Part shown: positions 4,645 to 48,971 of the stretch, in pieces
How the letters are laid out: every line of letters starts with the position of its first letter
Position numbering within the stretch: the first letter of the stretch is position 1
Origin: an uncultured Planctomycetota bacterium
Lineage (GTDB): Bacteria > Planctomycetota > Planctomycetia > Isosphaerales > Isosphaeraceae
NCBI GenBank assembly: GCA_963823665.1
Contig: CAWGMQ010000010.1
Span: 704,001-768,000 of the forward strand
Length of the DNA stretch: 64,000 bases
Direction of reading: 5' to 3'
The notes under the pieces: generated by a model
Seen by the model: the letters and a program-made list of their open reading frames with translations, nothing else
Told to the model about the DNA's origin: nothing
The model's database searches: none
Made by a program: the position numbers and the translations under genes

Positions 4645-4666
4645 GTCAGGCTTTAGCCTGACCTAC
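4641..4666. repeat. GTAG-type REP-like palindrome
   Basis: GTAGGTCAGGCTTTAGCCTGACCTAC; related copies at 15202 and 24418. Confidence 0.75.
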
Positions 4667-6186
4667 TTGGATTTCGCGGCGGGAACATCCATCTCCACGG
4701 GCATCGACCACTTACCTTGCTTCAGGCTGAAGGCGTACAGGCGCTTGCCCTGGCGGACGAGGAGGTGGTTCTCGGTCCATGAGGTTAGCGCTGGGGCGGT
4801 CGCATCCGCGGCGACTTCGAGAACGGACCAGGCGCCCTTCTCGGCACTGAAGGCGTAGAAGACGTTACCCCCCTGGTAGAGGGCGAAGCCATTGCCGAGG
4901 AGAGGCTGTACCGGACCCTCCAGGGGCGCTCGAAGTTTCACGCGCTCCCACAGCCCGTGCTTGGCGCTGAACGCCGCGATCTCTTCGATCGCTTTCCCCT
5001 CGTACACGAACGCCACAGTGTCGACGGTGTAGATAGGCGTGACCTTCACGCCATCGGGCACCGCAATCCGCTGCCATCCTCCCGTGACGTCCTGATCGAC
5101 ATCATCGCTCCACGCGTTGTAAGCTCGACCATCTTGCGATTTGACGACCAGGATCGACCCCATGCCGAGGACCGGATTGTGGTCCAAGTTGGGATGGTTC
5201 TTCCCCTTCCGCAGTTGGGCGGCAGGCGGGTTGAGAGGGATTGTTATTGGCGCGTTGGGATTCGTCTGCACCGCGGCCGCAGCGGACCGCGCGTTCGGAT
5301 CGGGTGGTGCCTGCACCTGGGCCGCACGCAACGCCAGGGCCCCGGCGACGCCCGACACGGATCCAACCACGACAATGGCCAGGAACGCGGTCTTGAACTT
5401 TTGGAAGAGCATGTTTCTCAAAACTCCTTGTGTCAGGGACAGAACGTTGGGTGCCACCGGCTGTGATGCCGCGAAGAGGAGCGCCGATTTCAGGGTCGAT
5501 GCGATCAAAGACCCGGGTGGCAAATCGCCGAGGTTGAGGAACGGCCGCGCGACCGCAGCCATCGGCACCGCCAGCCCGCGCCGCTCGAGTCGACCTTTCA
5601 GCAAGGCACGGCCGCGTGAGAGCCGGCCGCTGAGCGTTCCGACCGGCCAGTTCAGCACGCGGGCTGCCTCCTCATGCGTTTTGCCTTCAAGGTGGCAAAG
5701 CACGATGGGCGACCGGTACTTCTCCGGCAGCCGGCCGATCTCGTCGTGGAGCAGGGGGGCCGTCTCGAGTGCGGAGCCAACTTCCGACGGCGACCCGACC
5801 GATGATTCGATGTCGTCCAGGGCCAAGGGCGCGTGCCGCGCAGCGTAAACCCGCGCCCGCAGGGCTGTCCGGTACGCCACCTTGTACAGCCAGGGGCCGA
5901 TCGACTCGCGCACCTGCATCGACCGAGCTTTGCGAACCAGCACGAGAAACGTCGCCTGAAAGGCGTCGTCCGCGTCTTGCGGCCGTCGCACGATCTGACG
6001 GCAAACTCCCATGACCATCGGTGCGTGCCGTTCCAGCAGCTCGCGAAACGCCAGCTCCGCTGTGGCATCACGATCGAGCGTGAAGCGTTGCAAAAGCTGG
6101 GCATCACTGGCGCCGGTGACTGTACCCGCCGACCAGAGAACTTCCAGCTCCTGAGCGACCTTGCCACCCTTGCTCTGGACCATCAC
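4663..6186 (-). CDS. ECF sigma-70 factor with TM segment and C-terminal extension
   Basis: DAQLLQRF, AFRELLERHAPMV, DADDAFQATFLVL, LPEKYRSPIVLCHLEGKTHEEAARVLNWPVGTLSGRLSRGR, then a hydrophobic helix and a beta-rich domain. Confidence 0.92.
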   Translation of the reverse strand: MMVQSKGGKVAQELEVLWSAGTVTGASDAQLLQRFTLDRDATAELAFRELLERHAPMVMGVCRQIVRRPQDADDAFQATFLVLVRKARSMQVRESIGPWLYKVAYRTALRARVYAARHAPLALDDIESSVGSPSEVGSALETAPLLHDEIGRLPEKYRSPIVLCHLEGKTHEEAARVLNWPVGTLSGRLSRGRALLKGRLERRGLAVPMAAVARPFLNLGDLPPGSLIASTLKSALLFAASQPVAPNVLSLTQGVLRNMLFQKFKTAFLAIVVVGSVSGVAGALALRAAQVQAPPDPNARSAAAAVQTNPNAPITIPLNPPAAQLRKGKNHPNLDHNPVLGMGSILVVKSQDGRAYNAWSDDVDQDVTGGWQRIAVPDGVKVTPIYTVDTVAFVYEGKAIEEIAAFSAKHGLWERVKLRAPLEGPVQPLLGNGFALYQGGNVFYAFSAEKGAWSVLEVAADATAPALTSWTENHLLVRQGKRLYAFSLKQGKWSMPVEMDVPAAKSK

Positions 6187-6512: not shown

Positions 6513-9500
6513 ATGAACGAGCTCGACCTATTCATCGCAGGCCTGGAAGTCGACGATCCTGTCGAACGCGCCGCCTACCTCGACGAGGTCTGCGGCGGTG
6601 ACAGCGAAATGCGACAAAGGTTGGCCGCACTCATCGTCGCGATCGACCGGCCGGGCGCAGTTACTGGAGCGCTTTCGCGCGGCGGGCCGGGAGCGAGCAG
6701 CGATGGAATCCGAGCGGATCACCATTGAGGTCGGCTCCAGCTTGGCGGCGAGCAGTTGCGAACAAACGGTGAGCCATCAACAGGAAACAGGGGCACCGGG
6801 TCCGCTCATCGACAGCGTTATCGGCGGGCGTTACAAGCTGCGCCAGGAGCTCGGCGAAGGGGGCATGGGCTCGGTCTATCTTGCCGAGCAGACTGAGCCC
6901 GTGACGCGCACCGTGGCGCTCAAGCTGATCAAGCCGGGCTTGGACTCGAAGGCCGTGCTGGCGCGGTTTGAGTCGGAGCGGCAGGCCCTGGCGCTGATGG
7001 ACCACCCGCACATCGCCAAGTTCTTCGACGCCGGGGCGACCGAAACCGGCCGCCCGTTCTTCGTGATGGAGCTGATCAAGGGCGCCCCGCTCACGAGCTA
7101 CTGCGACGAGCACCGCCTGGGGCTGCTCGAGCGTTTGAACCTCTTCCGCCGGATCTGCGCGGCCGTGCAGCATGCGCATCAAAAGGGAATCATCCATCGC
7201 GACCTGAAGCCGACGAACATCCTGGTCGAGAGCCACGACGGCGAGCCTGTCCCCAAGGTCATCGACTTTGGCCTGGCGAAGGCGACAAGCGGGCTGCGAT
7301 TGAGCGATCACAGCATGTTGACTGCCTTTGGAGCCGTGGCCGGTACGCCACTTTACATGGCCCCCGAGCAGGTAGCCTGGAGTGCGCTCGACATCGACAC
7401 CCGAGCCGACATCTACTCGCTGGGCGTGATTCTGTACGAGCCTCTTGACCGGAAGCACGCCCATCCGTCGTGAGCTGCTTCATCAAGCGGCCGCGGACGA
7501 GATGGTGCGTTTGATCCGCGAGGTCGAGCCCCCGACCCCGAGCAGCCGCATCAGCACCTCGGACAAGCTGAAGCTGCCGAGCATCGCGGCGACACGGCAG
7601 ACCGAGCCCGCGCGGCTCTCCCGGTTCGTCCGCGGCGACCTCGACTGGATCGTGATGAAGGCGCTCGCCAAGGAACGGAACCGGCGGTATGAGTCGGCGA
7701 TCGCGCTGGCCCAGGACATCGAGCGGTTCATGAACCACGAGCCGGTGACGGCCGGGCCGCCGGCAGTGATGTACCGGTTCCGGAAATTCGCCCGCAGGCA
7801 CCGGGCGGGCTTGACGACGGTCGGAGCATTCGCCGTGCTGCTCGTCGCCACGGCCGCGGCAAGCACCAGCCTCGCCTTCTGGGCAAATCGGGAACGCGTG
7901 CGTGCGCTCAAGGCCGAAAGCATGGCCAGGGAACAACAAGCCCGCGCGCATGACCGTGAAAAGCTGGCGATCGACGCGGTGCGGCGGTACGGCGAGGCCG
8001 TTCGCACGACGCCCGAGTTGAAGAATGGTTCCGCCCTTTCAGAGCTCCGTGCCACCTTGCTCAAGGAGCCGCAGGCGTTCTTCAGAACCCTGCGCGACCG
8101 GCTCCAAGGCGATGGCGAGACGTCGGCCGACTCGCTCGCCCGCCTGGCTGCTGCGAGCTTCGAGCTGGGCCGCCTCACCGACGAGATCGGCGACAAGGAG
8201 GACGCCCTCCGAGCGTACGAGGAATCGCGGGCGATCCGGGAGCGGCTCGCCAGAGCGGAGTCGGCGAGCATCCAGATCCGGAGCGATCTGGCCACCACTT
8301 GCAACAACATCGGCATCCTGCAAGCAAGGATGGCACGGCCGGCGGAGGCGAAGGCGTCGTTCGAGCGGGCGCTCGCGATCCGGGAGATGCTCGCGCGAGA
8401 TAACCCGTCGGTCACCCAGTTTCAGAGGAACCTCACCTTCATCTACACGAACATCGGTAACCTGCAGCGTGCGACCGGCCGGCTGGCGGACGCGATGGCG
8501 TCATTCCAGCGAGCGCGCACACTCGAGGAGCGGCTCGTTCGTGAGAACCCGTCCGCCACTGAGCTCGAGCGCAACCTGGCCTTGAATGACCAACTGATCG
8601 GCGACCTGCAGCGTGAGATAGGCCGACCGGCCGAGGCGATGGCGTCGTACGAGCAGGCCCGAGTGATCCTGGAGCGGCTGGCACCCGAGAACCCGACGGT
8701 CGACAGGTTCCAGGGCACCCTGGCCGCGATCCAGATGTGCATCGGCGACCTGCAGCAAGAGACGGGAAGGCCGGCCGAGGCGAAGGTGTCGTACGAGCGG
8801 GGCCTCCCGATCCTCGAGCGGCTGGCGAGCGAACACCCGTCGGCGGCCCAGTTTCAGATCCACTTCGCCGAGGGACTCATCAAAGTGGGCGAGCTGAAGC
8901 GTGACATGAGCCGGCCGGAGGAGGCCATGGCGTTGCACGTCCGCGCCCACGCGATTCTTCTTCGGACGGTGAGCGAGAACCCGTCGTTCGCCGAGTTCCA
9001 GAGCCGCCTTGCTCACAGCCACCATTGCATCGCAGCGCTGCAAAGCGAGGCGGGCCGGCGGGCGGAGGCGCTCGAGTCGTACGAGAAGGCTCGGGTGATC
9101 CAGCAGCGGCTGGCGAGCGAGAACCCGGCGCTCACCGGCTCCGGCCTTGATCTGGCCGGCACCCTGGAAGGCATCGGATACATCAAGCTTGGAGCGGGCC
9201 AGGTGGCGGAGGCCCTCCAGTCGTTTGAGCAGGCCCGCCCGATCCGCGAACGGCTGGTCGCGAGAACCCGTCCGTCGACCGCTACCAGCAAGGCCTGGCC
9301 AGAAGTCGCAACATGATCGGCACCATGCTGCGCAAGACCGGCCATCCGGCCGAGGCGCACGAGTCGCTCGAGCAGGCCCGCGCGATCCGGGATCGCCTCG
9401 CCCGTGAGCATCCGGAATCGCCCGGCTACGCCAGCGACCTGGGCGGGACGATCCATAACCTGGCCCAGATCGACTTCGACCAGGGGCAATTCGACAAAGC

Positions 9501-10215
9501 CCGGACCAGGCTCACGGAGGCCATCCAGTGGCAGCGAAAGGCACTCGCCGCCAACCCGAATCAACCCGTCTACCGGCAGTACATGACCAATCATTTGACC
9601 GGCTTGATCCGAGCCGCCGTACGCCTGGGTCGCTCAGACGAGGCCGCCCTCGCCCGGCGTGAGCTGGCCGAGCTGGCCGCGAGCGATCCGGCGAAGGCGG
9701 CCCTCGATGCTCGCCTGGCCGCCGTGCTCAGAGGGAAAGAGTCTCCGAAGAACGCGGCCGACCGGATCGCACTCGCGTTTCGGGCCAATCAGAAGAAACT
9801 GTACGCATCCTCCGCCCACCTCTACACCGAGACGCTCGCCAGCGACCCCAAGCTCGCGGAGGATCGCAAGACCCGGCATCGCTATAACGCGGCCTGCGCC
9901 GCCGCGCTGGCGGCTTCCGGCCAGTCGAAGGATGAGCCGCAGCCGGATGCGGCTGCCGCAGCCACGCTCCGCGGGAAGGCGCGCGATTGGCTCAAGGCCG
10001 AGCTCGCCGCCTGGGCCAAGGTGCTGGACACCGGCCCGGCCCAGTTTAAGGCCGTCGTGCCCAAGACACTCGAGCACTGGAAGACCGACTCCGACCTGGC
10101 GGGCATCCGTGACGAGAAGGAATTGGCCAAGCTTTCGGATGCCGAGCGCGCCGCGCTCAAGGAGCTCTGGAACGACGTCGATCGCGTGCTCAAGAGTGCC
10201 GTTGCAAGCCAGTAA
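6513..10215 (+). CDS. Ser/Thr protein kinase with TPR repeats; frameshifts at ~6660, ~7445 and ~9265
   Basis: N-terminal [45 protein letters not shown], then TPR repeats and a C-terminal [10 protein letters not shown]...[13 protein letters not shown], spread over four consecutive ORFs. Confidence 0.9.
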
Positions 10216-11683: not shown

Positions 11684-11723
11684 AAAAACTCATGCCCCAG
11701 GGCGTTGCCGCCCTGGGGCATGA
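11684..11723 (-). terminator. intrinsic terminator of the ECF sigma transcript
   Basis: Perfect stem CATGCCCCAGGGCG/CGCCCTGGGGCATG followed on the minus strand by AGTTTTT, just after the sigma stop codon. Confidence 0.75.
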
Positions 11724-22144: not shown

Positions 22145-22260
22145 ATTCGACTACCAAAGTCCATGCGCGCCGGGCGAGTGCCCTTGAATCGACAACCGCG
22201 ACCTGGCCAGGCTAGCGGGGTGCGCGCTCTCCCGCAAGAGTGACCAAAGGAGCTTTTCCC

Positions 22261-23042
22261 GTGATGAACGTGGTGGTGACGGCAGGAGCCACGATTGCGC
22301 CGATCGACGACGTACGTCAATTGACGAATGTCTCCACCGGCCGCTTCGGCGCGGCGATCACTGAGTCGGCATTGCGACGAGGAGCACGGGTCTGGCACAT
22401 TTACTCCCGGTCGGCCGAGCTGCCGCTTCTGCGGTTTGCGCGGTTTGATCTGGACGCCCGCTCGCCCGAACTCGAGCTTGACCGTCTGGCGGAGCTCCAG
22501 AAGCAGTGGCTCGCCTGCCGCGATCGCCTCACGCGGGTTCCGCTCAGAGTCGGCAACGTGAGCAACTATTCCGACACACTTCGCCGCGTGCTCGAATCAC
22601 ATCCGATCGACGTGGTGATCCTGCCCATGGCCGTGGCCGATTACGAGCCCGAGCAAGAGGCCGGCAAGATCAGATCCGATCGCGAATCGCTGGTGGTGCA
22701 CTGCCGGCGCACGCCCAAGGTGATCAGCCTGGTTCGTGACTGGGCCCCAGCGGTTTATCTCGTCGGTTTCAAGCTGCTGTCGCACGTATCCGAGCAAGAG
22801 CTGATCCGCACCGCGGCGAGCGCCTGCGTGAGCAATCGCGCCCAACTCACGGTCGCCAATGACCTCGAGACGCTGGCGCGGGAAGGCACACGATCCATCT
22901 CGTGCGGCCCGGACACGAATGCGAGACGCTCGGACCGGGGGCAGATCTGGCCGATCGCCTCGTTGCCCGCATCTTCGACTGGGCCGCCCTATCGCGGCCG
23001 GCGAGCCACGTCGGGGCATTGCCGGAAGGTCTGAAGCCATGA
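22261..23042 (+). CDS. phosphopantothenate-cysteine ligase (CoaB-like) domain protein; frameshift at ~22880
   Basis: VVVTAGATIAPIDDVRQLTNVSTGRFG, MAVADY, LVGFKL, VANDL. Confidence 0.85.
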
Positions 23043-31445: not shown

Positions 31446-31966
31446 ACTTCAGGCTGGCGATGGGCTCCCTTGGTGCCTTTCGAGCGGAACCGCGACTTCT
31501 GCGATACGAGCCGGATCCGTTCGGTACGATGAACAGTTCCTCTCGAAGGCCGCCCGACCGCCGGATGCCGTCCGCTCCTCTGGGCCGCCGCACCACCGGT
31601 CGGCGACGCCGGACCAGTCGGCCGCGGGTAGCTGCCCCGGCGCAGCGGGGTCAGCCTGACCCGGCACGGCGTCTTGTGGAGCAGCTCGGCGAGTCTTGAA
31701 AGTGCGCTCCCGTTCTGGGTCCAACCCGACCGCAAGTCGAGTCGCGTGAACCAGCACGTTGGTATTCGGCTCTGAACGCGATTAAAATCAGTTCGGCGGG
31801 CGAACGGAGGCCATCGCGGGCCGCGGCTCCCGTCCCTCTCGAGCGCGGCGCGGGGGAACTCACCAAGGTGCGCGTCAGCGAACTCGGAACGTCCTCCGGA
31901 CACGGTAACCCAACACTGCCCGGAGAACGTGAAATCGAGACCAAGCAAGAGACTGGAAGGAATCCG

Positions 31967-32823
31967 ATGACCCACGGCGTGCAATCGATGCCGAGCCCGT
32001 CGAACCGGGGCACTGACTTTCTTATCCTGACACCCCTTCCAGAAGAGCGGGACGCTGTCCTCCGCTGCCTGGGGTCCTACCGTAAGCTACCGCCATCCGA
32101 CGAAGACATTCGGGTCTACTACGAGTCGGATCTGGCAGCGATCTTCCCGGATGGATCGAGCACGACCTACCGGGTCGTGGTGACTCCGCTGCTCGGGATG
32201 GGGCGGGTCGAAGCGGCGAACGCGACAGGGGACGCCGTCCGCCGCTGGCGGCCGCGTTACGTCCTCCTCGTGGGCATCGCGGGGGGCCTGGCCAAGGCGC
32301 TCGTCGGGCTCGGCGACGTCCTCATCTCGGACCAAATCGTTGACTACGAGCTTCAGAAGCTGACAACCGAAACGACGACGATCCGCTGGCAGGTGTATCG
32401 AGTCGACCCCCGTATGCTGGGGGCGGCGCAAAACGTGATTGGCGATGAGTGGCAAGAGCTCCTGGAGCACGAGCGACCAGGAGGCCGCGGCAAGCCCAAG
32501 CAGCTCTTTGGCCCGATCTGCACCGGCGACAAAGTCATCGCCAACAGCCTGATCGACGAGTATCGCGAGGTGTGGAGCAAGTTAATCGGCGTCGAGATGG
32601 AGGCCGGCGGCACAGCGAGCGCGGCGTTCCAGGCGGCCAACTCCCCCGGTTTCTTCATGATTCGCGGCGTGTCTGACCTTGCCGATGGGGCCAAGGACTC
32701 GTCTGACGTGTTGAGCTGGCGCCGTACGCCTGCGATGTCGCTGCAGCGTACGCGGTCGCGCTCCTCCGGAGCGGACCAGTCCCGGCGTCTGGAAGACCGG
32801 AGGCTACCGCAAACCCTCAGTAA
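31967..32823 (+). CDS. PNP/MTA-SAH nucleosidase-family effector (~285 aa); probable 1-nt sequencing deletion at ~32722
   Basis: LILTPLPEE, GMGRVEAA, LLVGIAGG, GDVLISD, GDKVI, GVEMEAGG, IRGVSDLAD; a shifted frame gives the expected end YACDVAAAYAVALL...ANPQ*. Confidence 0.88.
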
Positions 32824-32858
32824 GCCCACCGGCGGCCGAGGGCTTCACGCCGGTGGGC
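32799..32858 (+). promoter_or_regulatory. putative -1 programmed ribosomal frameshift signal
   Basis: GGAGG (32799), A_AAC_CCT heptamer (32811-32817), 6-nt spacer containing the stop codon, 11-bp stem GCCCACCGGCG/CGCCGGTGGGC (32824-32858); the -1 frame is the NB-ARC ORF. Confidence 0.7.
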
Positions 32859-35663
32859 GAGACACCTTTACCTTGGTCTGCCAGTAAACCTGGACGGAGC
32901 CCGGCGCCGCCACCCGTAATTCACCCCGATGAAGGCACCGCCGTTGGTGACGATAGGGCGCAGCCAGCCCCGCTGCTACAAAACCTTCCCCACCAGCGCA
33001 ACCAGAACTTCACCGGCCGTGAAGACTTTCTGGCTCGGATGGCTGAATATTTTGCCACGGCGGACTCGACCGCCCGGAGGCTGGCACTGTGGGGATTGGG
33101 CGGGGTTGGCAAGACCCATATGGCCAACGAATATGCTTACAGACATCAATCGCGGTACCGCCTGATCTGGTGGGTTCGTTCCGAGGATCTGGGCACACTC
33201 TTCGATGACATCGCTGCACTTGCCGTCGCTCTCCAGTTGGCCGGAGCCGGTTTGCCCGAACGTTCGTCAATCGTCGAGGCCGTGCGGAACGCACTCGAGA
33301 TACGCCGCGAATGGCTGTTGATTTTCGACAACGCGGAGGTTCTAGACAACCTTTCCGAGATACTACCACGCCGCGGCGGTCATGTTCTCATCACGTCGCG
33401 CAACCCCAACTGGGGGGAATTAGCGACCGCGCGCCAAGTCCGGCAGTGGGATCGGCCGGAATCGATCGAGTTTCTGCGGAAGCGAACGTCCGACGAGGAT
33501 GACGCCGCCGCCGATGCCTTGGCGGAAGCCCTGGGCGACTTGCCGCTCGCGCTGGCGCAAGCATCTGCTTACATTGACAAAACAGGTACAACATACAAGC
33601 AGTATCTCGAACTTTTCCTCAGTCGTCGCCAAGACCTCTGGGGGAGGGAAGAGAAACCTCTCGGGTACAATGAAACGATCACAACAACCTGGAGTGTGGC
33701 GATCGGCGAAATTCGCCAGTCGAGACCACAAGCCGCTAAACTCCTCGGCATGTTCGCTAGATTCGGCTCCGGCTCGGTCGAAGACTATCGCTCGATCGCC
33801 AGCGATTTCGCAGGTGCTTTGTCTGACTTGATCACCTTCAACGATTCGATCGCGGCCCTCAGGTCCTTCTCGCTCATCGAACGAAACGGAGACCTGGTCT
33901 TTGTCCATCCACTTGTAAGGAAGGTCGTCTCCGACGGATTCGGCGAGAAATTTGACAAGCCGACACATTTGGACATGCCCGGTCCAGGTGAGCAAACGAA
34001 TTTGGCGATTGACACTGCACAGACATCGGGCCTCGATGCCGGCGGGCCCGATCTGGTGAATCGGGGCCGGGAGCCAGAGCCCATCGGTGCGGTCCAGCGG
34101 ACCAGAATGGGCGCGATCGTCACAACCAAGCTGGATTGCCCATATCCGCGGTGCACCTCGAACGGCGCACCGACGTTCAATCGCCTGCCAGGAGGGATCG
34201 GCCAGTGCCGAAGTTGCAATCGGTTGGTCGTGGAGTGTAGGGAGGAGGGCTGCCGGCGCTCAGGCACGTTCAACCGCCCTTTCGTGCGTCACTGCCGGCG
34301 CTGCGGTGAGAGAATCAATCAGACGGCACAGTGGGAGAAGGCTCGCTCCGACGGATGGGACCTTGTACCCCAGTCGGTCTCGCGTCCTGAGGTCATCGCC
34401 GATCTCTCCGGACTGGCGGACAACAGCTCGTCGGGAAGCGTTGCGATCGCGACGGCGATGGTGCGCGGGGCTTTGGCCGTTCACCACGCGGGCCGTTTCC
34501 TGGCCCTGCTCAGGGTCGTGCCGCTTGCGACCGGCAACCCGTTCCTCTGGGAGCTCGACCGCTATCCGTTCCCGGCTTTGCCTGATGGGTCCGATCCCGC
34601 TCCCTATCCGCCGAAGCTTCTTCCCGGCGAGCGGTATCTGGCTTATTCCTGCCCTCAAGGAGTGCTGGTGCTCGACCTCTGGAGTTGCCCAGGACTGTCG
34701 GCGAAGGACCTCGGTCCCCAATACCGGCTCATCCGGTGTCAGCGCCGTTCGCTCGCCGCAGCCCCGATCCCCCTGGATGAATCGCGGATCGGCCTTTTGA
34801 CCAGAGATCGGTCGGGCGACGGGCACTTCCGATGGGCCGTTTGGGATCTCTCGAACAAAGACTTGACCGACGCGGAGTTGTCGTCCCGTCTGGACTCCCG
34901 GGAGACCAAAGATCTCGGGCACCTGTCGTGGATACGCAAGAGCTGTCGAGCTGAGCTAGTTGACGACCGCGTGATCGTCTTCACGACGCCGCGAGCGCAG
35001 AGAATCTGGCGTATCGAAGACGCAATCGCCTCGCGTTTTGACATGCTGCTGACGATCTGGCCAAATCGCGCCACGAAACAGACCGACTCCATCATCCTCA
35101 ACGAGCACCACGACGATTGGGCATCCGTGGGACTGTCCAGCCACGCCTTTCTACTTGAACCAGGCGCCGTGCGGTTCTCGTGTGTTATTTGCGTCGAGCA
35201 AGATGACTCGACCAGCCCGGTACGTATCGAGGAATATGAAGTCGACTTCGACACCTTGCAAGCGAATGCGCCTCAATCGATGGGACATCGTTCGGGAGCC
35301 GTACCTATCGGTTTGGCGCCCAACCCGAACAAGGTCTCGCAAATGTATTTCCGCGTGGGGACCGAAATCTGGTCCCAGACCGACGGGCAGGGTACCAGCA
35401 TTTGCCTCGATGGCCTTCCAAAAGTCGTGGTCAGCCTCCGTCTCAGCGGCCCGCTGGTCACAAGCGTCGGCGAGAACGAAGAAGGGGAACGGTTCATCCA
35501 GATCGATTCGCTACGGCACAGGGGCGGGCATGCCGGCGTTCTCGTCGAGAACAGGCTTCTTTCCGAACCGTTACTCTGGTATCACTGGCTCTTTACGATC
35601 GAGATGGACGCTGAAAACCGTCTGCAGGCATGCCGTCGTATCGTGGCGTTTAACCAAGGCTAA
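32811..35663 (+). CDS. NB-ARC/STAND ATPase fused to zinc ribbons and a beta-rich C-terminal domain
   Basis: NLPHQRNQNFTGRE, GLGGVGKT, WLLIFDNAE, LITSR, LPLALAQA, VHPLV; then CPYPRC, CRSC, CREEGC, CRRC. The frame is open from 32811; the ORF track starts it at 32853. Confidence 0.85.
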   Translation, partial: KPSVSPPAAEGFTPVGETPLPWSASKPGRSPAPPPVIHPDEGTAVGDDRAQPAPLLQNLPHQRNQNFTGREDFLARMAEYFATADSTARRLALWGLGGVGKTHMANEYAYRHQSRYRLIWWVRSEDLGTLFDDIAALAVALQLAGAGLPERSSIVEAVRNALEIRREWLLIFDNAEVLDNLSEILPRRGGHVLITSRNPNWGELATARQVRQWDRPESIEFLRKRTSDEDDAAADALAEALGDLPLALAQASAYIDKTGTTYKQYLELFLSRRQDLWGREEKPLGYNETITTTWSVAIGEIRQSRPQAAKLLGMFARFGSGSVEDYRSIASDFAGALSDLITFNDSIAALRSFSLIERNGDLVFVHPLVRKVVSDGFGEKFDKPTHLDMPGPGEQTNLAIDTAQTSGLDAGGPDLVNRGREPEPIGAVQRTRMGAIVTTKLDCPYPRCTSNGAPTFNRLPGGIGQCRSCNRLVVECREEGCRRSGTFNRPFVRHCRRCGERINQTAQWEKARSDGWDLVPQSVSRPEVIADLSGLADNSSSGSVAIATAMVRGALAVHHAGRFLALLRVVPLATGNPFLWELDRYPFPALPDGSDPAPYPPKLLPGERYLAYSCPQGVLVLDLWSCPGLSAKDLGPQYRLIRCQRRSLAAAPIPLDESRIGLLTRDRSGDGHFRWAVWDLSNKDLTDAELSSRLDSRETKDLGHLSWIRKSCRAELVDDRVIVFTTPRAQRIWRIEDAIASRFDMLLTIWPNRATKQTDSIILNEHHDDWASVGLSSHAFLLEPGAVRFSCVICVEQDDSTSPVRIEEYEVDFDTLQANAPQSMGHRSGAVPIGLAPNPNKVSQMYFRVGTEIWSQTDGQGTSICLDGLPKVVVSLRLSGPLVTSVGENEEGERFIQIDSLRHRGGHAGVLVENRLLSEPLLWYHWLFTIEMDAENRLQACRRIVAFNQG

Positions 35664-36047: not shown

Positions 36048-36202
36048 CCGCCGGTGTCGCCCGCCGGGATTCGGCCCGAAGTGATTGGATCGTGCCATCC
36101 AGGAACTTTTCCTTCTTGCGAGTGGCCGTCCGCGGTAGCGCGAGGAGCAGTTGATGAGCGACGTCGAATCGAGGGTCACGTCCACCTCGAGGGGCGTCAT
36201 CC

Positions 36203-39200
36203 ATGGGGATGAGACCCTCACAAAGCCCGTCCCCACAATCTTCATCGCCTTGGGGGGAGCGGTACAGACGTCGTCATGCGGCTGCGCAAGCGGTTCTTCG
36301 ACCGCTTTCACACCGCGGATCCGGGTCACGTCCGGTTTGTGTTTATCGATACCGACACGCAGAAGTCGGTTCCCAAAGGAGAGAATTCGGAGTTGTTCGA
36401 CGAACTCCAGCCCAGTCAGGAGGACCTGGTTTCCGCCCCTATCACCGCGGCTCAATTCCAACGCGTCTTCGCCGACCTGTGCGCAAGATCAACTGCGACC
36501 ACCTCACGTGGCTGAAACCTGAGCTCGAGCGGATCGGTCCCGAGGCTCTGGAGCACGGGGCCGGGACCCATCGGCAGTTTGGCCGCCTGGCGTTCTATCT
36601 CAATCATGTGCCGATCCGTCACACGATCGAGCGGCAGATCGCCGAGTCCCTGCGCTTTGCCGCCCTTAACCCCACCAAAGTCGCGGAGGATCGGATCGAA
36701 GTCGTGATCGTGATGACGCTGGCCGGCGGGACCGGGTCGGGGATGTTCATCGATGTGGCTTATCTGGTCCAGGATATCCTCGATCGGCCCACCTATCGCG
36801 CATGCAGAAGCAAGAGCGTCACCCTGATCGCCTTCCTTCCCGGCCTCTTCGACGCACACAGGGCGCTGTCGCAGCGATTCCGACAGAATGCGTTCGCCGC
36901 GCTCCTGGAACTCGAATACTACGGAACACCTCGCACGGGCGACGATCTGTTGCTGGGAGACGTTCGGCACGGTGCGCGACAGGAGCGTCACTGGACCGGC
37001 TTCATGGCCGACTGGGGCGATGGCAACAGGCGGTTCATCCGCGGCCCCGGCTGGGACACCTGCTTCCTGATCGACAACCGCAACGATCTCGATCCAAACG
37101 CCCCGTTGTCGGATCGCGACGTCTTCCAGATGGCGGCGGACTACCTGTTCCTCGACTTCGAGAACCATGAACTCGCCGTCGCCAAGCGATCGTCTCGCTC
37201 CAATATCGTTCAATTCAAGGACAAGGTCAAGGAGACGTGGGTGCGCCGGCCGGATAGCAGGGAGGCGGCGGGCGGCATCTTCGAGGGCAACTCCGTCTAC
37301 GCCACCCAGAACGGCTGCCGATTCAGCTCATTCGGGCTGGCCGAGATCTACTTCGACCTGGAAAAGCTCTACCAGGTCGCGGCATACCGACTCGCCGCAA
37401 TTCTGGTCCGATCCCGATGGCTCGGCAACGCCGACCAACACCCGGAGAGCCGGTACACGACTTGGATCAACGAACACCTGTTTCAGCCAAGAGACATACT
37501 GGACGAGGAAATTCCCCCTTCATTCCACCCCGAGCGACTGACACGCCAGTTACTGACGACTGCCTCCGGTTGCTGGCTCGACGACATCACGCGGGACATT
37601 GAGTCCTTGAGCAAGATCGAGCCGAAGGAGGGCCTCGATCGGATGCGCCGGCTCCTCGGCGCCCACGTGGAGCTGCTTCACAAGGCGGCCCCCGGAGATA
37701 TTGCGGCCGCCCGCCAGACGATCCAGGACAACCTGGTGCGGTTGAGTGGCGACGCGAAAACGCTGGGCTCGTTGCGCACGCGCCTTCGCGAGCTCGCCGC
37801 CAGGCATTGCGCGCTTCATGGCGTCTCCTCGACTCTGCGCTTGCTCGATGACATTGTCCGCGCTCTCTACGAGATCCGGGAACGCTCTCTCGCCCTGCCG
37901 GCAGGTCCAACCGACCACGATCTCCTGGCACGTCTTGTCGAAGCCCAGATGGTCCCCTGGCCGGTACACGACACCGCCGTGGCAACCGAATTCAGCCGAG
38001 CCCGTGACCTGATAGAAAAAGCGCTTCGACGCCGCTACGACCAGGCCGCCGGGATGGCGATCGACCGCATGCTCCTGGATGTTTGCCGGTACCTCCGTGC
38101 GCCGGCCCAACCCCCTTACCCCGAAGTGACGGTGCATGGCACATTGCATGCCTACTACAGACGGGCGCAAAGTTTCCTGAGAATGCTCGCCGAGCGCCTG
38201 GAAAAACGGTTCAAGTTGACCTACGGCTACGACCATTTCAAGGTGGCCCGCAGGCACTCGCTCGGCCCAAATTGGGATGAAGCCACCTTCGATAAACGGA
38301 TCGATGAGGCACTGGTGCTTCATCCCGAAATCAACAAGTCGGATGACGCGAACGACAAGTTCAGCTTCGACTGGAGCCGGTTCGAGGCTCTGGTCCTGCA
38401 AAACTTACGCAATTTGCACGGCGCCGGGATGGAGGTGGTGAAGGACGTCGATGATCTCATCAGGAACTGTTTCGAGAACGAGCGGGACAACACCGAAGGG
38501 ATCATCCAGGTCGCCGACTGGCTGGCGGACGCCTGCAAGGTCGTCCTCCACGGTGGCAAGGATGCCAGCGGCTTGCCTGCCGGCGGTTTCCAGCTCAGGG
38601 ACGAGGCAGACGGTAACGCCGTCGACCTGCTAGTCCGCCAGGCAGACTGGATGGAGATCCTTGACAGGATGGTCAAGGTGAGCATGCCGTACCTTCAGAC
38701 GACCGACCCGACCCGGATCTCGAACGATTTCTCTCCGGCCTACAGCAATCTCTACAGCCAGAAACAGGGAGAAACCAACACCAGGGTGAGCGAGAGGAAC
38801 GCCGCGCGGGTGTTCGAGAAAGTGCGGGAAATCGTTGCCTCCCGCGCACAGTACAGCGCCAGTTTGGCGCGCGCAATATCGCTCGCCCACTGGAGGCCGA
38901 GAACTCAAGGATCATCCTCGTCCGCGAGATGACCGGGTTTCCCCTCCAGTTCTACGCCCACCTGGACAGCCTGCGCGAGGCTTATGAGACCACCCCGAAC
39001 GTCACGCTCAAGAACGACGAGTGCCACATCAACTTCAAGGTAGCGAGTGAAGACCTCCCCGACATCACCCTGTTGGAGACGGATACCTATGCCCTGATTC
39101 GTGAGAACGTGTCGGTCGTGATCCGCGCGATCATCCTCCAGGCCATCAACTGGAGGGAGGGGATGCTGAAAGTGGCGGTGCCCGACAAGTATGGTACGGC

Positions 39201-39792
39201 AGGGATCGAGGTGCCGCTGGGCTCTCGCCTCCATCGGGCCATCAAGTACGCGTGCGAAAAAGACAGCGTCCGGCAGTATCTCGTCCGGTTCTGGAAGGAA
39301 TGGACAGACCGGGCCTTGCCCCACGACTGGGCGTCTCTGTACGCGTCGGGGCGAATGACTTGGACTGAGTTGAATCCCGAACGCGACATTCGGCAAGACG
39401 ACGTGTCTTCGCCGCTCCGCAATTGCTATGACAACCTCCTCGCACAGGCCAGTAAATGCTTGAAATCCACCGAGGAAGGCCAGCGATGGCTGCAGGATCT
39501 CCAGCCGTACGCCTTCTCGGAGCCGCCCCCCGCGGACCGTCTCGATGGTGCCAACACTCGTCCCCTGGCCGCCAGGTTTGTGCGAAGGTGCTTGAGGCGA
39601 CTCAACGCGGACCTGCCGATCTACCAGGTGATCGCCGACACGGTCCCCATGACGCTGGAGCAGGCCGCGATGGCCCACGATTGCATATGCGCGACGGAAA
39701 GGTTCCCCCTCGCGGTCTTCTGCGATGACGATCTGTTTTGCCCGCAATGTGGCGGACGCGTGAACGAGGAGTCCCAGCCCGCTCGAATTTGA
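36203..39792 (+). CDS. large tubulin/FtsZ-like (Tubulin_2-type) protein, ~1190 aa, with helical body and C-terminal zinc ribbon; frameshifts at ~36206, ~36257, ~36485 and ~38870
   Basis: Reconstructed PTIFIALGGxGTDVV, FVFIDTD, GAGTHRQFGRLAF, TLAGGTGSGMFIDVAY, NAFAALLEL, FSSFG; C-terminal CIC...FCPQCGG. Confidence 0.85.
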
Positions 39793-42700: not shown

Positions 42701-42806
42701 ACATTCTTGAGATAATCCTACCGATCAGGCGCTCACCGGCTGCAAACCCCCGGCGGCGGGGGCCGTTCGCCGATCCGTCGCGCCGGGCTTCCGGGAGGCC
42801 CGCCTC

Positions 42807-45800
42807 ATGGCTGCCGTCGCCGCGGATCGAGAGCTGCTGTTCGGACTTCTGGCCCTCCAGAACGGGATCATCAACCAGGGGCAACTCCTGGCCGCCTTCC
42901 AGGCGTGGACCCTCGAGAGATCGAAGGGCCTGGCCGACCATCTCGTGGCACTCGGGCATTTAACCCCCGCGCGGCGGCCGATCGTCGAAGCGATGGCGGC
43001 ACTCCACCTGGAAGCCCACGGCGGCGATGTCGAGAAGAGCCTGGCCGCCGTCCCGTCAAACAGGGGGACCCGCGATGGGCTGGCGAGCCTCAAGGAGCCC
43101 CAGATCGAGGCGACGCTGACCCGCGTCGGCCGCATCTGCTTTGATCAAGCGACCGATCGCGACGGGCAAGACAGCAATGCCGACAGCACGGTCGGCCTCT
43201 CGCTGGGTGCTTCGACCAGCGACGGCCAGCGGTTTCGCGTGCTCCGGCCGCACGCCCGCGGCGGGCTGGGCGAGGTCTTCGTCGCGCTCGATTCCGAGCT
43301 CAATCGCGAGGTCGCGCTCAAGCACATCCTCGAGAGGCACGCCGACGATCCGTTCAGCCGCAAGCGGTTCGTCGCCGAGGCCGAGATCACCGGCAGCCTG
43401 GAACATCCCGGGGTCGTGCCCGTGTACGGGCTGGGCACGTACGCCGACGGCCGGCCCTACTACGCCATGCGGTTCATCCGCTGCGACAGTCTCAAGGAAG
43501 CGATCGGCCGCTATCACGGCGATGAAACCCTCAAGAACGATCCCGGCAAGCGCTCGCTGGCCCTGCGCAAGCTGCTGCGCCGGTTCCTGGACGTCTGCAA
43601 CGCCGTCGACTACTCGCACAGCCGCGGCGTCATCCACCGTGACATCAAGCCGGCCAACATCATCCTGGGCCAGCACGGCGAGACGCTGGTCGTCGATTGG
43701 GGGCTGGCCAAATCGGTCGGGCGGGCCGATCCGACCGTCGGCGAGCAGACGATTGCTCCGTCCTCCTCGGGCCGGTCGTCGGAGACCCTTCCCGGAAGTG
43801 TCCTGGGAACGCCGGCCTACATGAGCCCCGAGCAGGCCGCCGGCGTGCTGGAGAAGCTCGGCCCGCGGTCCGACGTCTATAGCCTGGGCGCCACGCTCTA
43901 TTGCCTTCTGACCGGCAAGCCGCCGTTCGAGAATGAAGACCTTGGCGCCATGCTCCGCGCCGTGCAGGCCGGCGATTTCGCCCGGCCGGCGGAGCGCGGC
44001 CCGGCGCCGACCGGGCGCTCGAGGCCATCTGCCTGAAGGCCATGGCGCTGGAGCCGCAGGACCGCTACCCGACCGCGCGGGCCCTGGCAGACGACCTGGA
44101 GCGGTGGATGGCCGACGAGCCGGTCTCGGCCTGGCGTGAGCCGCTCTCGCGGCGATTGCGGCGGTGGTCGCGGCGGAACCGCACGGCCGTGACCGCCGCG
44201 GTCGTGGCGTTGCTTGCGGCGCTGGCGGGCCTGGGGGCCGTGGCCGCCGTGCAGGCGAAGGCCAACGGCGAATTGTATGCGCTCACCGGCCGGCTGGAGC
44301 GAGCCAACGCCGAGTTGTTCGACGAGAAGTCCCGCGTGCAAGAGCGGTTCGACGTGGCGATGGACGCGATCCGGACCTTCCACACGGGCGTGAGCGAGGA
44401 CTTCCTGCTCAGGGAGGAGCAATTCAAGGGCCTGCGCGACAAGCTCCTGAAGTCGGCGGCCGACTTCTACGGCAAGCTGGGCGGGCTTCTGAAGCAGCAG
44501 ACCGACCTCGCGTCGCGGCGGGCACTGGCGCAGGCCGAGTTCGAGCTGGCCGAGCTGACGGCGAAGGTCGGCGACTCGAAGCAGGCGCTGGATCGGCACC
44601 GCGAGGCGCTCTCGCTGCGCGAGGCGCTGGCTGCCGAGCCGCGGGCCGACGCCGAGACGCAGGCCGAGGCGGCGCGGAGCGTACTGGCGGTGGGGCGGGC
44701 AGAGCGCGTCATCGGCAAGACGACCGAGGCCGAGGCATCCTTCCGGTCGGCCCACGAGCGGCTGGCAAAACTCGTGGAGGCAGATCCCGGAGCCGATGAC
44801 CACCGCGCCGAGCTGGCATCGGTTGTGTGGCACCTGGGATCCTTGTTGAGGGATAACGGGCGGTATCCCGAGGCGCTGGCCTGGCTGGAGCGATCGCGCA
44901 ACGCGCGGGAGGCGCTTGCCGCGGCCGAGCCCTCAAATGCGCTCCGGCAGCTCGAGCTGGCAAGAAGCCTCCGCATCCTGGCCGATACGTTGGGCGGGCT
45001 CGGTCGGATGTCGGAATCGCTGGAATCCGGCCGTCGCGCCGTGGCGATCCTCGAGCGGCTGGTCGCGGCCGACCCTGCCGCGACCGAAACTCGCTTCGAG
45101 CTGTGTGCGAGCCAGTACACCGTGGGACAGCGACTGGGCATTGTGGGGCAGACCGCGGCGGCGCTGGAAACGTACGGGCGCATGCGAGAGAACGCGCGCC
45201 GCCTGGTGGAGGACAACCCTGCGGTCGCCTCGTTCCAGTATGCCCTGGCGAGGGCCTATCACGGCACCGGAAACTACCTCCACTCGGCCGGCCGGGAGGC
45301 GGAGGCCGTGGAGGCGCTCGGTCACGCGCTGGAGGTGTTTCGGAAGCTCGTCCGCGACCACCCGTCGGTCTATGATTATTGCCGGCGTCTGGCCGATATG
45401 TACGCCAACGTCGGCGAGTCCCTGGCCAACTTGGGCCGGCCGGTCGAGGGGCTGGAGTCGGCCCGCGAGGGCCTCAAGGTCGCACGCGAGCTGTTGGCCT
45501 CAAACCCGGAGATGACCAACTCCCGCTACTGTCTGGGCCACGCCCTCAATGGGGTGGGGCGGGCCGAGGCGCGGCTGGGCCGCCGCGCCGAGGCGGCGGC
45601 TACGTTCCGCGAGGCGATCGGAATCTATGAGGCCATCCCCGAGCCGGTGCGTAGTGCGGTCGTCCGCTACAACCTGGCATGCAGCCATTCCCAGCTCTCG
45701 GGCGTGCTGGCCGGTTCAAGCGCCGAGGGCGACGCGCTGCGCGGGCCGAGGCCGACCGGGCGATGGCGTCCCTGCGCGACGCAGTCGCCCACGGCTACCG

Positions 45801-45912
45801 TAACCTGCCCGGCCTGCGGACCGACCCCGACCTCAACGTTATCCGCCCCCGGCCCGACTTCCAGCTCCTGCTCCTTGACCTGTCCTTCCCCACCCAGCCG
45901 TTCGCGCCCTGA
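42807..45912 (+). CDS. Ser/Thr protein kinase with TPR repeats; frameshifts at ~44000 and ~45745
   Basis: LLFGLLALQNG, HARGGLGEV, HRDIKPAN, DWGLAK, GTPAYMSPEQ, TPRs, C-terminal YNLAC...DPDL...RPDFQLLLLDLSFPTQPF. Confidence 0.9.
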
Positions 45913-46103
45913 GCGGCAAGCCCGGAGTTTGTGGATCGGCCGATTCTCATGGCGAGCATTTTCGATGCACACCGCGGGCCGTCGGCCCCGATCCGTTCGC
46001 CGCTGGGATCCGACGCCTCGTCCGTCGACCCCGCACGCCGTTCCCAAGCGAATACCGCCCTCAGGCCTCGGTCGAAAAGGACAGGCATCGCCCCGTTGAC
46101 ACG

Positions 46104-46671: not shown

Positions 46672-48971
46672 ATGTCCAATCGCCGCATCTTCGTCAGCGC
46701 CACAAATCGAGAACCTCGCGAGTTATCGTGACCTTGCGAGCAAGTCGCTTCGCAAGCGCGGTTATGACGTGGATGACCAGGCTGTATTCAGTCTGAGCTT
46801 TCTCCAGCTCATCCAGATGCTCGAGCAGCGAATTGAGCGGTGCGACGCGGTCGTTTGCCTGGTTGGTTTCGCCTACGGCGGCGAGCCATCAAATCGCCCG
46901 CCCGATCAACCCCGCCGCTCCTACGCCCAGTGGGAGTACCACCTCGCCCGCGAGCTTGATAAGCCCGTCTACCTTCTCATGGGCACAGGAGAACACGACG
47001 TTTGACGAGCCAAAGCCAAACATCACGCCAGAAAGCGGCGAGCTGCTCCAGCTCCAGCGTGACCATCGCGTCGAGCTTACTCGCGATCGCGACTGGCGCC
47101 CGTTCAACGGCGCCGATCAACTCCGCGCCGAGCTCGCCGAGCTTCGTTTCCCCTGGCCAGATTCGCCAGTCGCACACCAGCCCAACAATCTGCCGCTGGC
47201 CTCGATCGGCAAGCTTTTCAAAGGCCGCGACTCGTTCCTCGACGAGCTGCGCGAAAGGCTAGGAGTCGCCGGAGCCTCAGCCACAGCAATCGTGAACCGG
47301 CTGGCTGTTCACGGCCTGGGTGGTGTCGGCAAGACCCGCGCCGCGGTCGAATTTGCCTGGCGACATGCCGATGACTAAACCGCCTTGCTCTTCGTCTCGG
47401 CCCAGTCTCAGGCCGAGCTCCGGTCCAACCTGGCCAATCTTGTCGGTGTATTGGGGATGACCGGCGGCGAGACATCGGTCGAGAATCAATCGACCGCCAT
47501 CCTGGAGTGGCTCGATGCCCACCCCGGCTGGCTGCTGATCATCGACAACGTAGACACCGAAGAGGCGGCCCAGGCGGTCGAGGACCTGCTGACCAAACTC
47601 CGGTCCGGCCACACATTGATCACATCTCGAATCGGCAACTGGGGTGCCGGCGTCGAGCCGCTCGATCTGGACATCCTGGCCCGGTCCGACGCCGTGGCCT
47701 TCTTGATCGAGCGGACCCCGCACCGTCGCAGGACGAAGGACGATGGGACCATCGCCGCCGAGCTCGCCCGCGAGCTGGACGGCCTGGCCCTGATGCTGGA
47801 GCAGGCCGGCGCTAACATCGACAAGCTGCGCCTGTCATTCGCCGAGTATTTGGACCAATGGAAGGCGAAGCGCTCCGAAGTGCTCCGCTGGCACGACCCG
47901 CGCCTCATGAAGTATCCCGCCGGCGTGGCCGTTACCTGGGAAACCACGTTCGCCCAGTTGACAGATCGCGAGCGGCGGTTGCTCGACGTCCTCTCCTGGC
48001 TGGCCCCCGACCCGATCCCGCTCTTCCTGTTCGATGCCAAGCCACTCGTCGACGCCATCCCAGATATCCGCACGGCGCTGGCCGCCCTGGCAGGCTACTC
48101 GCTGGCGCGCTTCGACGCCTCGGGCAACGCGGTTCTGGTCCACTGCCTCGTGCAAGAGATCACCCGCGGCCGCATACCCGCGGCCGACCGAATCACCACG
48201 CTCCAGCTCTCCCTCGACGCAGTAAACGATGTCGCCGTGGGCAATCCTCAGGATTTCCGTACATGGCGGGTCTGGAAACCCCTGGCAGCCCACGGCGAGG
48301 CCGTGAGCCGGTATGGCGACACCGCGGGCCTCGCCAACCCCACCGCGTGGCTGATGGGCCAACTCGCTGGGTACTGGCTCTACTGCGGAGTGTACCGCCA
48401 GGCCGAGCCGCTGATGCGGCGAGCGCTGTCGATCGACGAGGCAAGCTTTGGCCCGGACCACCCCGACGTGGCCAGAGACCTCAACAATCTGGCGCAATTG
48501 CTGCAAGCCGCCAACCGCCTGTCCGAGGCCGAGCCGCTGATGCGTCGAGCGCTATCGATCGACGAGGCAAGCTTTGGCCCGGACCACCCCGACGTGGCCA
48601 GAGACCTCAACAACCTGGCGTCGTTGCTGCAAGCCACCAACCGCCTCTCCGAGGCCGAGCCACTGATGCGTCGCGCGCTTTCGATCGACGAGGCAAGCTA
48701 TGGCCCGGACCACCCCGATGTGGCCATCGACTTCAACAACCTGGCGCGACTGCTGCAAGCCACCAACCGCCCGTCCGAGGCCGAGCCCCTCTTCCGCCGC
48801 GCCGCCCAGATCCTGACCGATTTCACGCAGAAGACCCGCCACGAACATCCAAACCTTCAAGCTGTCATCAACAATTACCGTGCCTTCTTGGACGAGCAAG
48901 GACAGACGCCGGAACAAATCGATCAAGCCTTGGGCGAGCTGACCAGCTCACCCGACGCGAACGACTCCTGA
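46672..48971 (+). pseudogene. DUF4062-like effector + NB-ARC + TPR (NLR-like); frameshifts at ~46710 and ~46990 and an in-frame TAA at 47376
   Basis: RIFVSAT, CDAVVCLVGFAYG, SYAQWEY, NNLP, GLGGVGKT, WLLIIDNVD, LITSR, 42-aa TPRs. Confidence 0.8.
48401..48800 (+). repeat. three tandem 126-bp TPR-coding repeats
   Basis: AEPLMRRALSIDEASFGPDHPDVARDLNNLA repeated with near DNA identity. Confidence 0.9.

Follow-up and report, generated by a model that had tools for sequence, protein, structure and literature searches.

Two neighbouring genes or one recoded message? A conserved hairpin between a PNP-superfamily effector and an NB-ARC sensor in a planctomycete genome

How an effector and its sensor are joined is the question raised by a locus in a 64,000-nucleotide (nt) stretch from an uncultured Planctomycetota bacterium of the Isosphaeraceae (contig CAWGMQ010000010.1 of assembly GCA_963823665.1, positions 704,001 to 768,000 of the forward strand; hereafter the window, numbered from its first letter). 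Here, a gene for a PNP-superfamily effector is followed on the same strand by an open reading frame (ORF) for a 936-amino-acid (aa) NB-ARC/STAND NTPase that lies in the −1 frame relative to it, and between the two stand a stop codon and a perfect GC-rich stem-loop in which the only canonical start of the second ORF is buried. A sequence-only reading of this DNA had proposed that a programmed −1 ribosomal frameshift at the junction yields both a free PNP effector and a PNP–NB-ARC fusion. The anatomy underlying that proposal stands, as does the 1-nt deletion that it had posited within the PNP gene; its interpretation fares less well, with two neighbouring genes being likelier than programmed recoding. 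We see about an even chance that the locus consists of two cistrons of a STAND/NLR-type conflict system with a conserved 3′ or intercistronic hairpin between them, and regard the programmed frameshift as improbable.

Anatomy of the junction

The first part of the effector ORF (31967..32721, plus strand, frame 2 mod 3) opens with an ATG at 31967, with a GTG upstream at 31868, and is a member of the PNP_UDP_1 family by its match to the Pfam profile PF01048 (E = 5.5e-15). In the uncorrected frame this match spans positions 42-208 of the 233 in the profile, as against 37-226 for the protein of L028, the sole close comparator at the junction among the 12 loci that a PNP-domain scan of metagenome contigs returned. 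Uncorrected, the ORF runs to a TAA at 32885, and the conserved C-terminal helix of the PNP domain (..YACDVAAAYAVALLRSGPV..) resumes in frame 1 mod 3 at about 32722. Alignment with L028 and with a second locus, L029, places a 1-nt deletion at 32721..32723 (GGCGC-CG in the window versus GGCGCGCG in L028 and GGCGAGCC in L029), just as the sequence-only reading had suspected. Since both loci carry the extra base, the deletion is private to the window assembly, and would be a recent lesion or else an error in the assembly. With the frame thus shifted, the last helix and tail of the PNP protein (..YACDVAAAYAVALLRSGPVPASGRPEATANPQ, followed by the stop) occupy 32722..32823 on the plus strand and close with the codons GCA AAC CCT CAG TAA, the TAA being 32821-32823. 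A Pfam search detected no domain in the 31700-31966 region upstream of the PNP gene or in the leader of the NB-ARC ORF.

All the sequence features on which the frameshift proposal was built, namely the heptamer, GGAGG, 6-nt spacer, 11-bp stem, GTG and open −1 frame, are present around this stop. The heptamer A_AAC_CCT (32811..32817, plus strand) formally has the X_XXY_YYZ form of a −1 slippery site in the PNP frame, though the zero frame reaches it only with the 32722 deletion corrected. An SD (Shine–Dalgarno)-like GGAGG lies 7 nt 5′ of it (32799..32803, plus strand), in a window that has 87 occurrences of this pentamer on that strand. On its 3′ side, a 6-nt spacer, CAGTAA, leads into the hairpin (32824..32858, plus strand), which comes 1 nt after the stop and pairs 32824-32834 (GCCCACCGGCG) with 32848-32858 (CGCCGGTGGGC) in 11 perfect pairs across a 13-nt loop; this distance is within the 5-9 nt at which the stimulatory structure of a −1 site is placed. 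In the ORFs of the window, in-frame heptamers of the X_XXY_YYZ type were counted at 26 of 14,793 codon positions (a few ORF coordinates were trimmed by eye, and the phase may be off in some), and unless it has a function, the presence of one at the appropriate distance from the stem is an uncommon coincidence.

The hairpin itself is not a chance structure. Perfect stems of at least 11 bp with loops of 3-20 nt give 11 nested matches in the window, which resolve into three distinct hairpins, against a mean of 0.65 nested matches over 60 first-order Markov simulations. Folded alone, the junction hairpin has a free energy of −26.8 kcal/mol (−24.6 kcal/mol for its counterpart in L028), and its 86-nt context folds to −36.5 kcal/mol (z = −2.14; 4 of 200 shuffles folded equally well). 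It is unique in the 16.46-Mb genome, as judged by searches with both the 11-bp and 9-bp arms. When a genome collection was scanned for the hairpin pattern, 81 stretches matched, of which 80 loci were examined for relatives of the PNP or NB-ARC proteins and had none (tblastn, E <= 1e-5); these pattern-matched stretches are chance GC palindromes.

Two other identities were considered for this element and set aside. A repetitive extragenic palindromic (REP)-like element was rejected on account of the single site in the genome with either arm length, and an integron attC site, which has a GTTRRRY-type core, was dropped by eye as there is no such core. The remaining two perfect hairpins of the window, at 4637-4670 and 11690-11723, are 15-bp palindromes (−28.2 and −32.5 kcal/mol, respectively) situated at the ends of convergent genes, with the former holding the stop codons of both its flanking genes. 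Both lie on or beside stop codons, have no canonical U-tract and resemble bidirectional hairpins of gene ends.

The NB-ARC ORF (32853..35663, plus strand) lies in the −1 frame (codon starts 0 mod 3), which is open from 32715 onwards. This ORF does have a possible initiation site of its own: the first ATG, GTG or TTG in the frame is the GTG at 32853, within the 3′ arm of the stem and 43 codons before the conserved N-terminal motif of the NB-ARC module. Membership in the NB-ARC/STAND NTPases is indicated by the Pfam matches to NB-ARC (PF00931, E = 3.2e-5, 23.7 bits against a cut-off of 23.5) and AAA_16, the FTGRE motif at residue 53, the P-loop GLGGVGKT at residues 81-88 and a module that is 41-47% identical to those of many annotated NB-ARC-TPR proteins.

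Comparators of the PNP cassette and of the sensor

The protein of L028 is 91% identical to the window PNP over 251 residues and is intact, reading WRAYACDIAASYAVALLRSGPVPASPRPGTSANPQ up to its stop in one frame (WRAYACD.. continuous). Its closing codons are GCA AAC CCT CAA TAA, the same GTG follows, and there is no indel between the PNP helix and that GTG; the same stop in the same frame establishes that the TAA of the window is not an assembly artefact. The heptamer is unchanged (7/7), and the two arms of the stem are identical at 21 of 22 positions, with the lone C>T change keeping the pairing as G·U, whereas the loop retains only 7 of 13 positions and the PNP tail just 5′ of the heptamer 11 of 18. 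The SD-like element is unconserved, with GGGGA in L028. The PNP cores agree at 677 of 755 nt and at 195 of 251 third codon positions. At this third-position rate, the probability of at most one change in the 29 nt of heptamer and arms is 0.006; the unchanged heptamer by itself is not significant (0.78^7, about 0.17).

The block homologous to L028 extends over 31931..32858 on the plus strand at about 90% nt identity and comprises the linker, PNP domain, stop and hairpin, with unrelated flanks on both sides. In a profile of 30-column steps, the PNP core (31931-32739) scores 24-29 identities per 30, the stretch 32740-32859 scores 21-25, and the sequence outside the block 2-17. On the 3′ side, the homology stops exactly where the hairpin does: the next 42 nt match at only 16 positions, and the downstream peptides of the two loci gave no BLASTP alignment with each other. 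The frame of the L028 GTG is likewise −1 to its PNP frame and open to the end of the contig; however, the 120-nt tail of L028 is open in all three forward frames, and the open −1 frame there accordingly says little. On the 5′ side, the L028 gene (1034-2299) codes for a two-domain effector with an N-terminal EAD8 adaptor (PF19961, E = 4.7e-14) fused to PNP, and the window copy begins exactly at the interdomain linker, with unrelated sequence in the place of EAD8. We found no EAD8 in the genome of the window, but the control genomes gave none either, so that this absence is weak. The configuration by which EAD pairs are recognized, the same EAD on the effector and on an adjacent core component, is not seen at the window locus.

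The sequence-only reading had pointed to homologous effector genes as the place to seek a conserved heptamer and hairpin. The only close relative, L028, keeps the stop, heptamer and stem, along with the −1 frame relation, beside a downstream gene that is unrelated or unseen, and no indel making a simple in-frame fusion came to light in it. The next locus, L029 (79% identical), lacks both elements and instead runs past the stop position in frame into another domain. We further probed public soil metagenome runs, of which small shares matched; contigs from four of these runs cover 31900-32311 and 33142-33900, with nothing at 32312-33141, where position 32722 and the junction lie.

A search of representative proteins with the PNP sequence recovered 7742 proteins at E <= 0.001, and architectures were taken from the best 150, which include long proteins that open with the PNP domain, proteins in which an extension of 100-250 aa precedes a C-terminal PNP domain, and proteins of PNP alone. 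Stand-alone PNP proteins, 66-70% identical to L028, make up the nearest clade. In an alignment of ten relatives (P0300, which equals L028, was left out), 8 of the 10, all proteins of 307-433 aa, stop within one residue of the window and L028 stop, while one of the two exceptions is 8 residues longer and the other, P0309, runs on for about 110 residues. The position of the PNP stop is thus ancient and native to a free effector. P0309 (about 69% identical) has, past the stop position, about 60 residues resembling a real helical domain followed by GC-rich sequence that looks out of frame, and its extension may be a natural or an artefactual fusion with the downstream gene.

In-frame fusions of PNP also occur. 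Among the metagenome loci, the PNP domain is joined to NB-ARC in L032, L033 and L038, to another P-loop NTPase in L035 and L036, to a kinase in L037, and to other C-terminal extensions in L029 and L030; in the PNP gene of L030, a stem spans the stop codon, while L031, in which a TGA falls inside the tblastn match range, was left out of the hairpin comparison. Single-chain PNP–NB-ARC proteins were likewise noted in the protein set (P0003, P0004, P0006, P0007 and P0010 among 29 matches, and additionally P0076 and P0144). Relatives of the PNP gene are present in 7 of the 121 genomes of the family, that of the window (G000) included, with the best full-length match at 55% identity and a 76% fragment in G048; with P0150 as the query, none was found in 400 other genomes of the phylum, and none was on plasmids.

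The NB-ARC ORF has 2143 homologues. The top two matches are P0030, which differs by one substitution over 702 aa and comes from a 3755-nt contig, and P0031, 67% identical over 751 columns; the remainder are at most 47% identical and align with the NB-ARC module only. The first 40 residues of P0031 match an off-frame ORF of the window (33311-33499; 48%, E = 5e-8), with the NB-ARC frame beginning thereafter, which implies that the P0031 gene is also frame-broken within the NB-ARC module. The homologue in G092 is split. Among the 118 homologues listed, 112 have about 100 or more residues before the P-loop, mostly TIR, HNH or PNP domains, and the other six have the P-loop within 91 residues of the N-terminus, indicating that short-leader forms exist. 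A sensor without a fused effector is hence atypical for this clade, a condition that fits the fusion idea and a rearranged or decayed locus equally well.

The C-terminal half of the sensor ORF, about 510 aa (residues ~424-936; 34120-35663, plus strand), is not a TPR region and has no Pfam match. It starts with Cys-rich, zinc-ribbon-like motifs (CPYPRC..CRSC..CRRCG), and G049 and G092 have homologues 46-50% identical to it, in open frames of 558 and 727 aa, respectively. This half may be a sensor domain.

Two genes, recoding or decay

These comparisons show that the stop is real and ancient, that the hairpin is a conserved structure at which the conserved block ends, and that the 32722 deletion is private. 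The shared unit of linker, PNP, stop and hairpin is thus a gene with its own 3′ hairpin, set beside different neighbours in two organisms. We propose that the effector gene, of the PNP superfamily, stands alone and terminates at its native stop, and that a distinct NB-ARC sensor gene starts 29 nt past it at GTG 32853. The hairpin would be the 3′ part of the PNP cassette, acting as a terminator-like or stabilising RNA structure at the 3′ end or between the cistrons; its position, the analogy with the other hairpins of the window and the homology boundary make this the simplest reading. As it comes 1 nt after the stop and holds the sole canonical start (ATG, GTG or TTG) before the conserved NB-ARC motif, it could also restrict independent initiation of the sensor to a low level and tie sensor translation to ribosomes that have completed PNP and unwind the 5′ arm, in a form of translational coupling. 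Hairpins that lack a U-tract yet resemble terminators or stabilise 3′ ends are familiar, as are hairpins that occlude a start codon in translational coupling, and the window hairpin shares with them a strong GC stem right after a stop and the start of the next cistron in the 3′ arm. What differs is that a gene of the same strand follows at a distance of only 29 nt. A role in termination or coupling is putative.

The two-gene arrangement is also in keeping with the EAD-based effector modules described by Kaur, Burroughs, Iyer and Aravind (2020, PMC7159879), in which, according to excerpts of that work, an EAD is the mark of an effector that is made as a separate protein and recruited to the core component of an adjoining gene. 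The corresponding configuration in the window is a separate PNPase-superfamily effector beside an NTPase. The nearest relative, L028, encodes an EAD8–PNP protein, and its EAD8 supports the view that the PNP domain of this cassette functions as a separately encoded effector.

Several observations weigh against this arrangement. Unlike in the EAD modules as presented in those excerpts, the window PNP has no EAD8 or other N-terminal adaptor, which leaves the control of a free PNP protein by the sensor unexplained. The sequence after the stem, GAGACACCTTTACC, has no T run, a simple terminator scan makes no call there, and the combination of GC stem and U-tract that marks an intrinsic terminator is not found. 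The SD-like GAGGG in the loop 5′ of the GTG is unconserved, and the use of GTG 32853 as the start is itself, like the function of the hairpin, a prediction. The prevalence of fused N-terminal domains among the NB-ARC homologues and the rare in-frame heptamer, unchanged in L028 at its 6-nt spacing, are further points on this side.

The last two would be accounted for by a programmed −1 frameshift on A_AAC_CCU, stimulated by the stem, which would yield mostly free PNP (~285 aa) and a minority of PNP–NB-ARC fusion (~1230 aa). The likeness to the dnaX and IS3/IS911 recoding cassettes is genuine in that an X_XXY_YYZ heptamer preceded by an SD-like element is set 6 nt from a stable stem-loop, the zero frame stops soon after the heptamer, and the −1 frame is open. 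The heptamer and the arms of the stem stay nearly invariant in L028 amid a diverged tail and loop, and the frame of its GTG is again −1. Moreover, the product would recreate the single-chain architecture usual for the NB-ARC clade, of which in-frame PNP–NB-ARC proteins are actual examples: these PNP–NB-ARC–TPR STAND/NLR-like proteins, named ‘FxSxx-COOH system tetratricopeptide repeat protein’ or ‘nucleoside phosphorylase/TPR repeat protein’ at source, have the same order of PNP then NB-ARC and the same motif, ..P-H-Q-R-N-x-N-F-T-G-R-E. However, they differ in having no stop and −1 frame change between the domains, in a linker of about 20-35 aa where that of the window fusion would be about 65 aa, and in a C-terminal TPR region in place of the Cys-rich ~510 aa.

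The evidence from recoding efficiency is similarly divided. Excerpts of a survey in E. coli (PMC4066793) list C_CCU among the six tetramers that are prone to shift with a strong stimulator, at frequencies of 0.26-5.6% across the six with the IS3 pseudoknot; the same excerpts place A_AAC_CCU outside the high-efficiency heptamer set and A_AAC_CCA among three heptamers that remain below threshold even with that pseudoknot. By those excerpts, the C-rich heptamer of the window belongs to a weak class, in which it departs from dnaX and IS3/IS911, as it also does in its unconserved SD-like element, in a downstream ORF with its own conserved start codon, in L028 homology that stops at the stem, and in being known from sequence alone.

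What turns us away from the frameshift is the combination of these points with the comparative record. There is one comparator only, its downstream sequence is unrelated to the NB-ARC ORF of the window and the openness of its −1 frame says little. The conservation of the heptamer is insignificant alone, the heptamer also encodes the conserved ANPQ end of the protein, and the stop coincides with that of stand-alone relatives. The shared block goes no further than the final base of the hairpin, the two remaining perfect hairpins of the window sit at gene 3′ ends, and the PNP frame reaches the heptamer only once the 32722 deletion is corrected. A limited full-text literature search retrieved no report that links programmed ribosomal frameshifting to anti-phage STAND/NLR systems. 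We hence judge the frameshift improbable. A variant in which the PNP cassette is portable and has a working low-efficiency −1 site, giving mostly free effector and a little effector–sensor fusion wherever it lands before a −1-frame sensor, appears to us comparably doubtful.

Two further proposals dispense with either the stop or the RNA structure. If a second assembly indel at about 32790-32821 masked a plain in-frame PNP–NB-ARC fusion, the locus would simply join the fused homologues; frame breaks are indeed numerous in the assembly and include one that is 100 nt upstream, and AAACCC is a pair of short homopolymers. Yet in the independent contig L028, whose PNP gene is otherwise intact, the stop recurs in the same frame without an indel up to the GTG, and of the 10 relatives that are about 70% identical, 8 end at the equivalent place, leaving this proposal barely credible. 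Alternatively, the inverted repeat could act as DNA, serving as the operator through which a dimeric regulator controls the NB-ARC gene, in line with its conserved arms, diverged spacer and location directly upstream of or over the start of that ORF. However, the single change in the arms keeps the G·U pair of an RNA but breaks the symmetry of a DNA site, no regulator gene was identified adjoining the repeat, and operators do not usually combine 11-bp GC arms with a 13-nt spacer; we consider this very unlikely.

More serious is the possibility that no regulated coupling exists at all because the locus is decayed and rearranged: a PNP cassette, cut from an adaptor–PNP gene at the linker and after the hairpin, would have been set before an NB-ARC gene that lost its N-terminal effector, the PNP gene would later have been frameshifted, and the heptamer and frame relation would be accidental. 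Both homology boundaries do lie at module edges, the EAD8 of L028 is gone in the window, the 32722 deletion is private, and the GC content at third codon positions differs between PNP (0.81) and NB-ARC (0.70). Other genes of the window are broken too (the kinase-TPR genes A and B, an NB-ARC-TPR gene and probably a tubulin-like gene), and among the relatives of the sensor, P0031 is frame-broken and the G092 homologue split. Against such decay speak the intact 936-codon NB-ARC ORF, a 702-aa stretch of which recurs with one substitution in P0030, and the structural constraint on the stem between the window and L028; moreover, the breaks may be errors of a long-read assembly (12 contigs for 16.46 Mb, with 5 of 6 indel-type breaks deletion-like). 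Decay is therefore a possibility that we take seriously while thinking it rather unlikely.

The implications diverge accordingly. If there are two genes, the locus is an ordinary PNP-effector/STAND-sensor conflict system and a clean example of cassette-wise shuffling, in which a module from the domain linker to the 3′ hairpin occurs with EAD8 in one organism and bare before an effector-less NB-ARC protein in another. If the frameshift were real, recoding would join the ways of wiring sensors to effectors, with the effector-to-sensor ratio fixed in the mRNA, and a recoding event would be on record for a bacterial NLR-like immune locus for the first time; were the cassette also portable, it would allow an effector to be plugged into a STAND/NLR sensor without gene fusion.

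Frame breaks elsewhere in the window

The assembly from which the window derives comprises 12 contigs, and its frame breaks bear on how the junction is read. With many of them in the assembly, a frame change alone is weak evidence; the stop at the junction is, however, vouched for by L028. Besides the PNP gene, at least five genes of the window are broken. The window has roughly one frame break per 10 kb, a rate that calls for caution in any frame-based inference from this assembly, and 5 of the 6 indel-type breaks are deletion-like as judged by eye.

The Ser/Thr kinase-TPR gene A (6517-10212, plus strand) is split over three overlapping ORFs, with frame changes at about 7440 and 9250. The former is inside the kinase domain (before LLTGSTPI..), where an extra C in GAGCCTCTTG was noted by eye, and the latter is in the TPR region. 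Its paralogue, gene B (42711-46096, plus strand), changes frame at about 43990 in the C-lobe of the kinase (..GDFARPAE / ..DRALEAICLKAMA..). A tblastn comparison of the paralogues found each to be continuous where the other is broken, and Pfam searches with the short fragments past the kinase breaks gave no match. The NB-ARC-TPR gene (46797-48971, plus strand; DUF7779 with TPR_12/TPR_10) has an in-frame TAA at 47376-47378 just past the P-loop, between ..AWRHADD and TALLFV..; this is a nonsense change and not an indel.

A tubulin-like ORF (PF13809, Tubulin_2; 36158-39792, plus strand) overlaps by about 270 nt with a coding-like ORF in the −1 frame, and the gene probably changes frame near 38860. 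At 22216-23031 on the plus strand, the DFP domain (PF04127) is matched in two separate stretches of one ORF, which overlaps by about 200 nt with an acyltransferase ORF and may be another disrupted gene.

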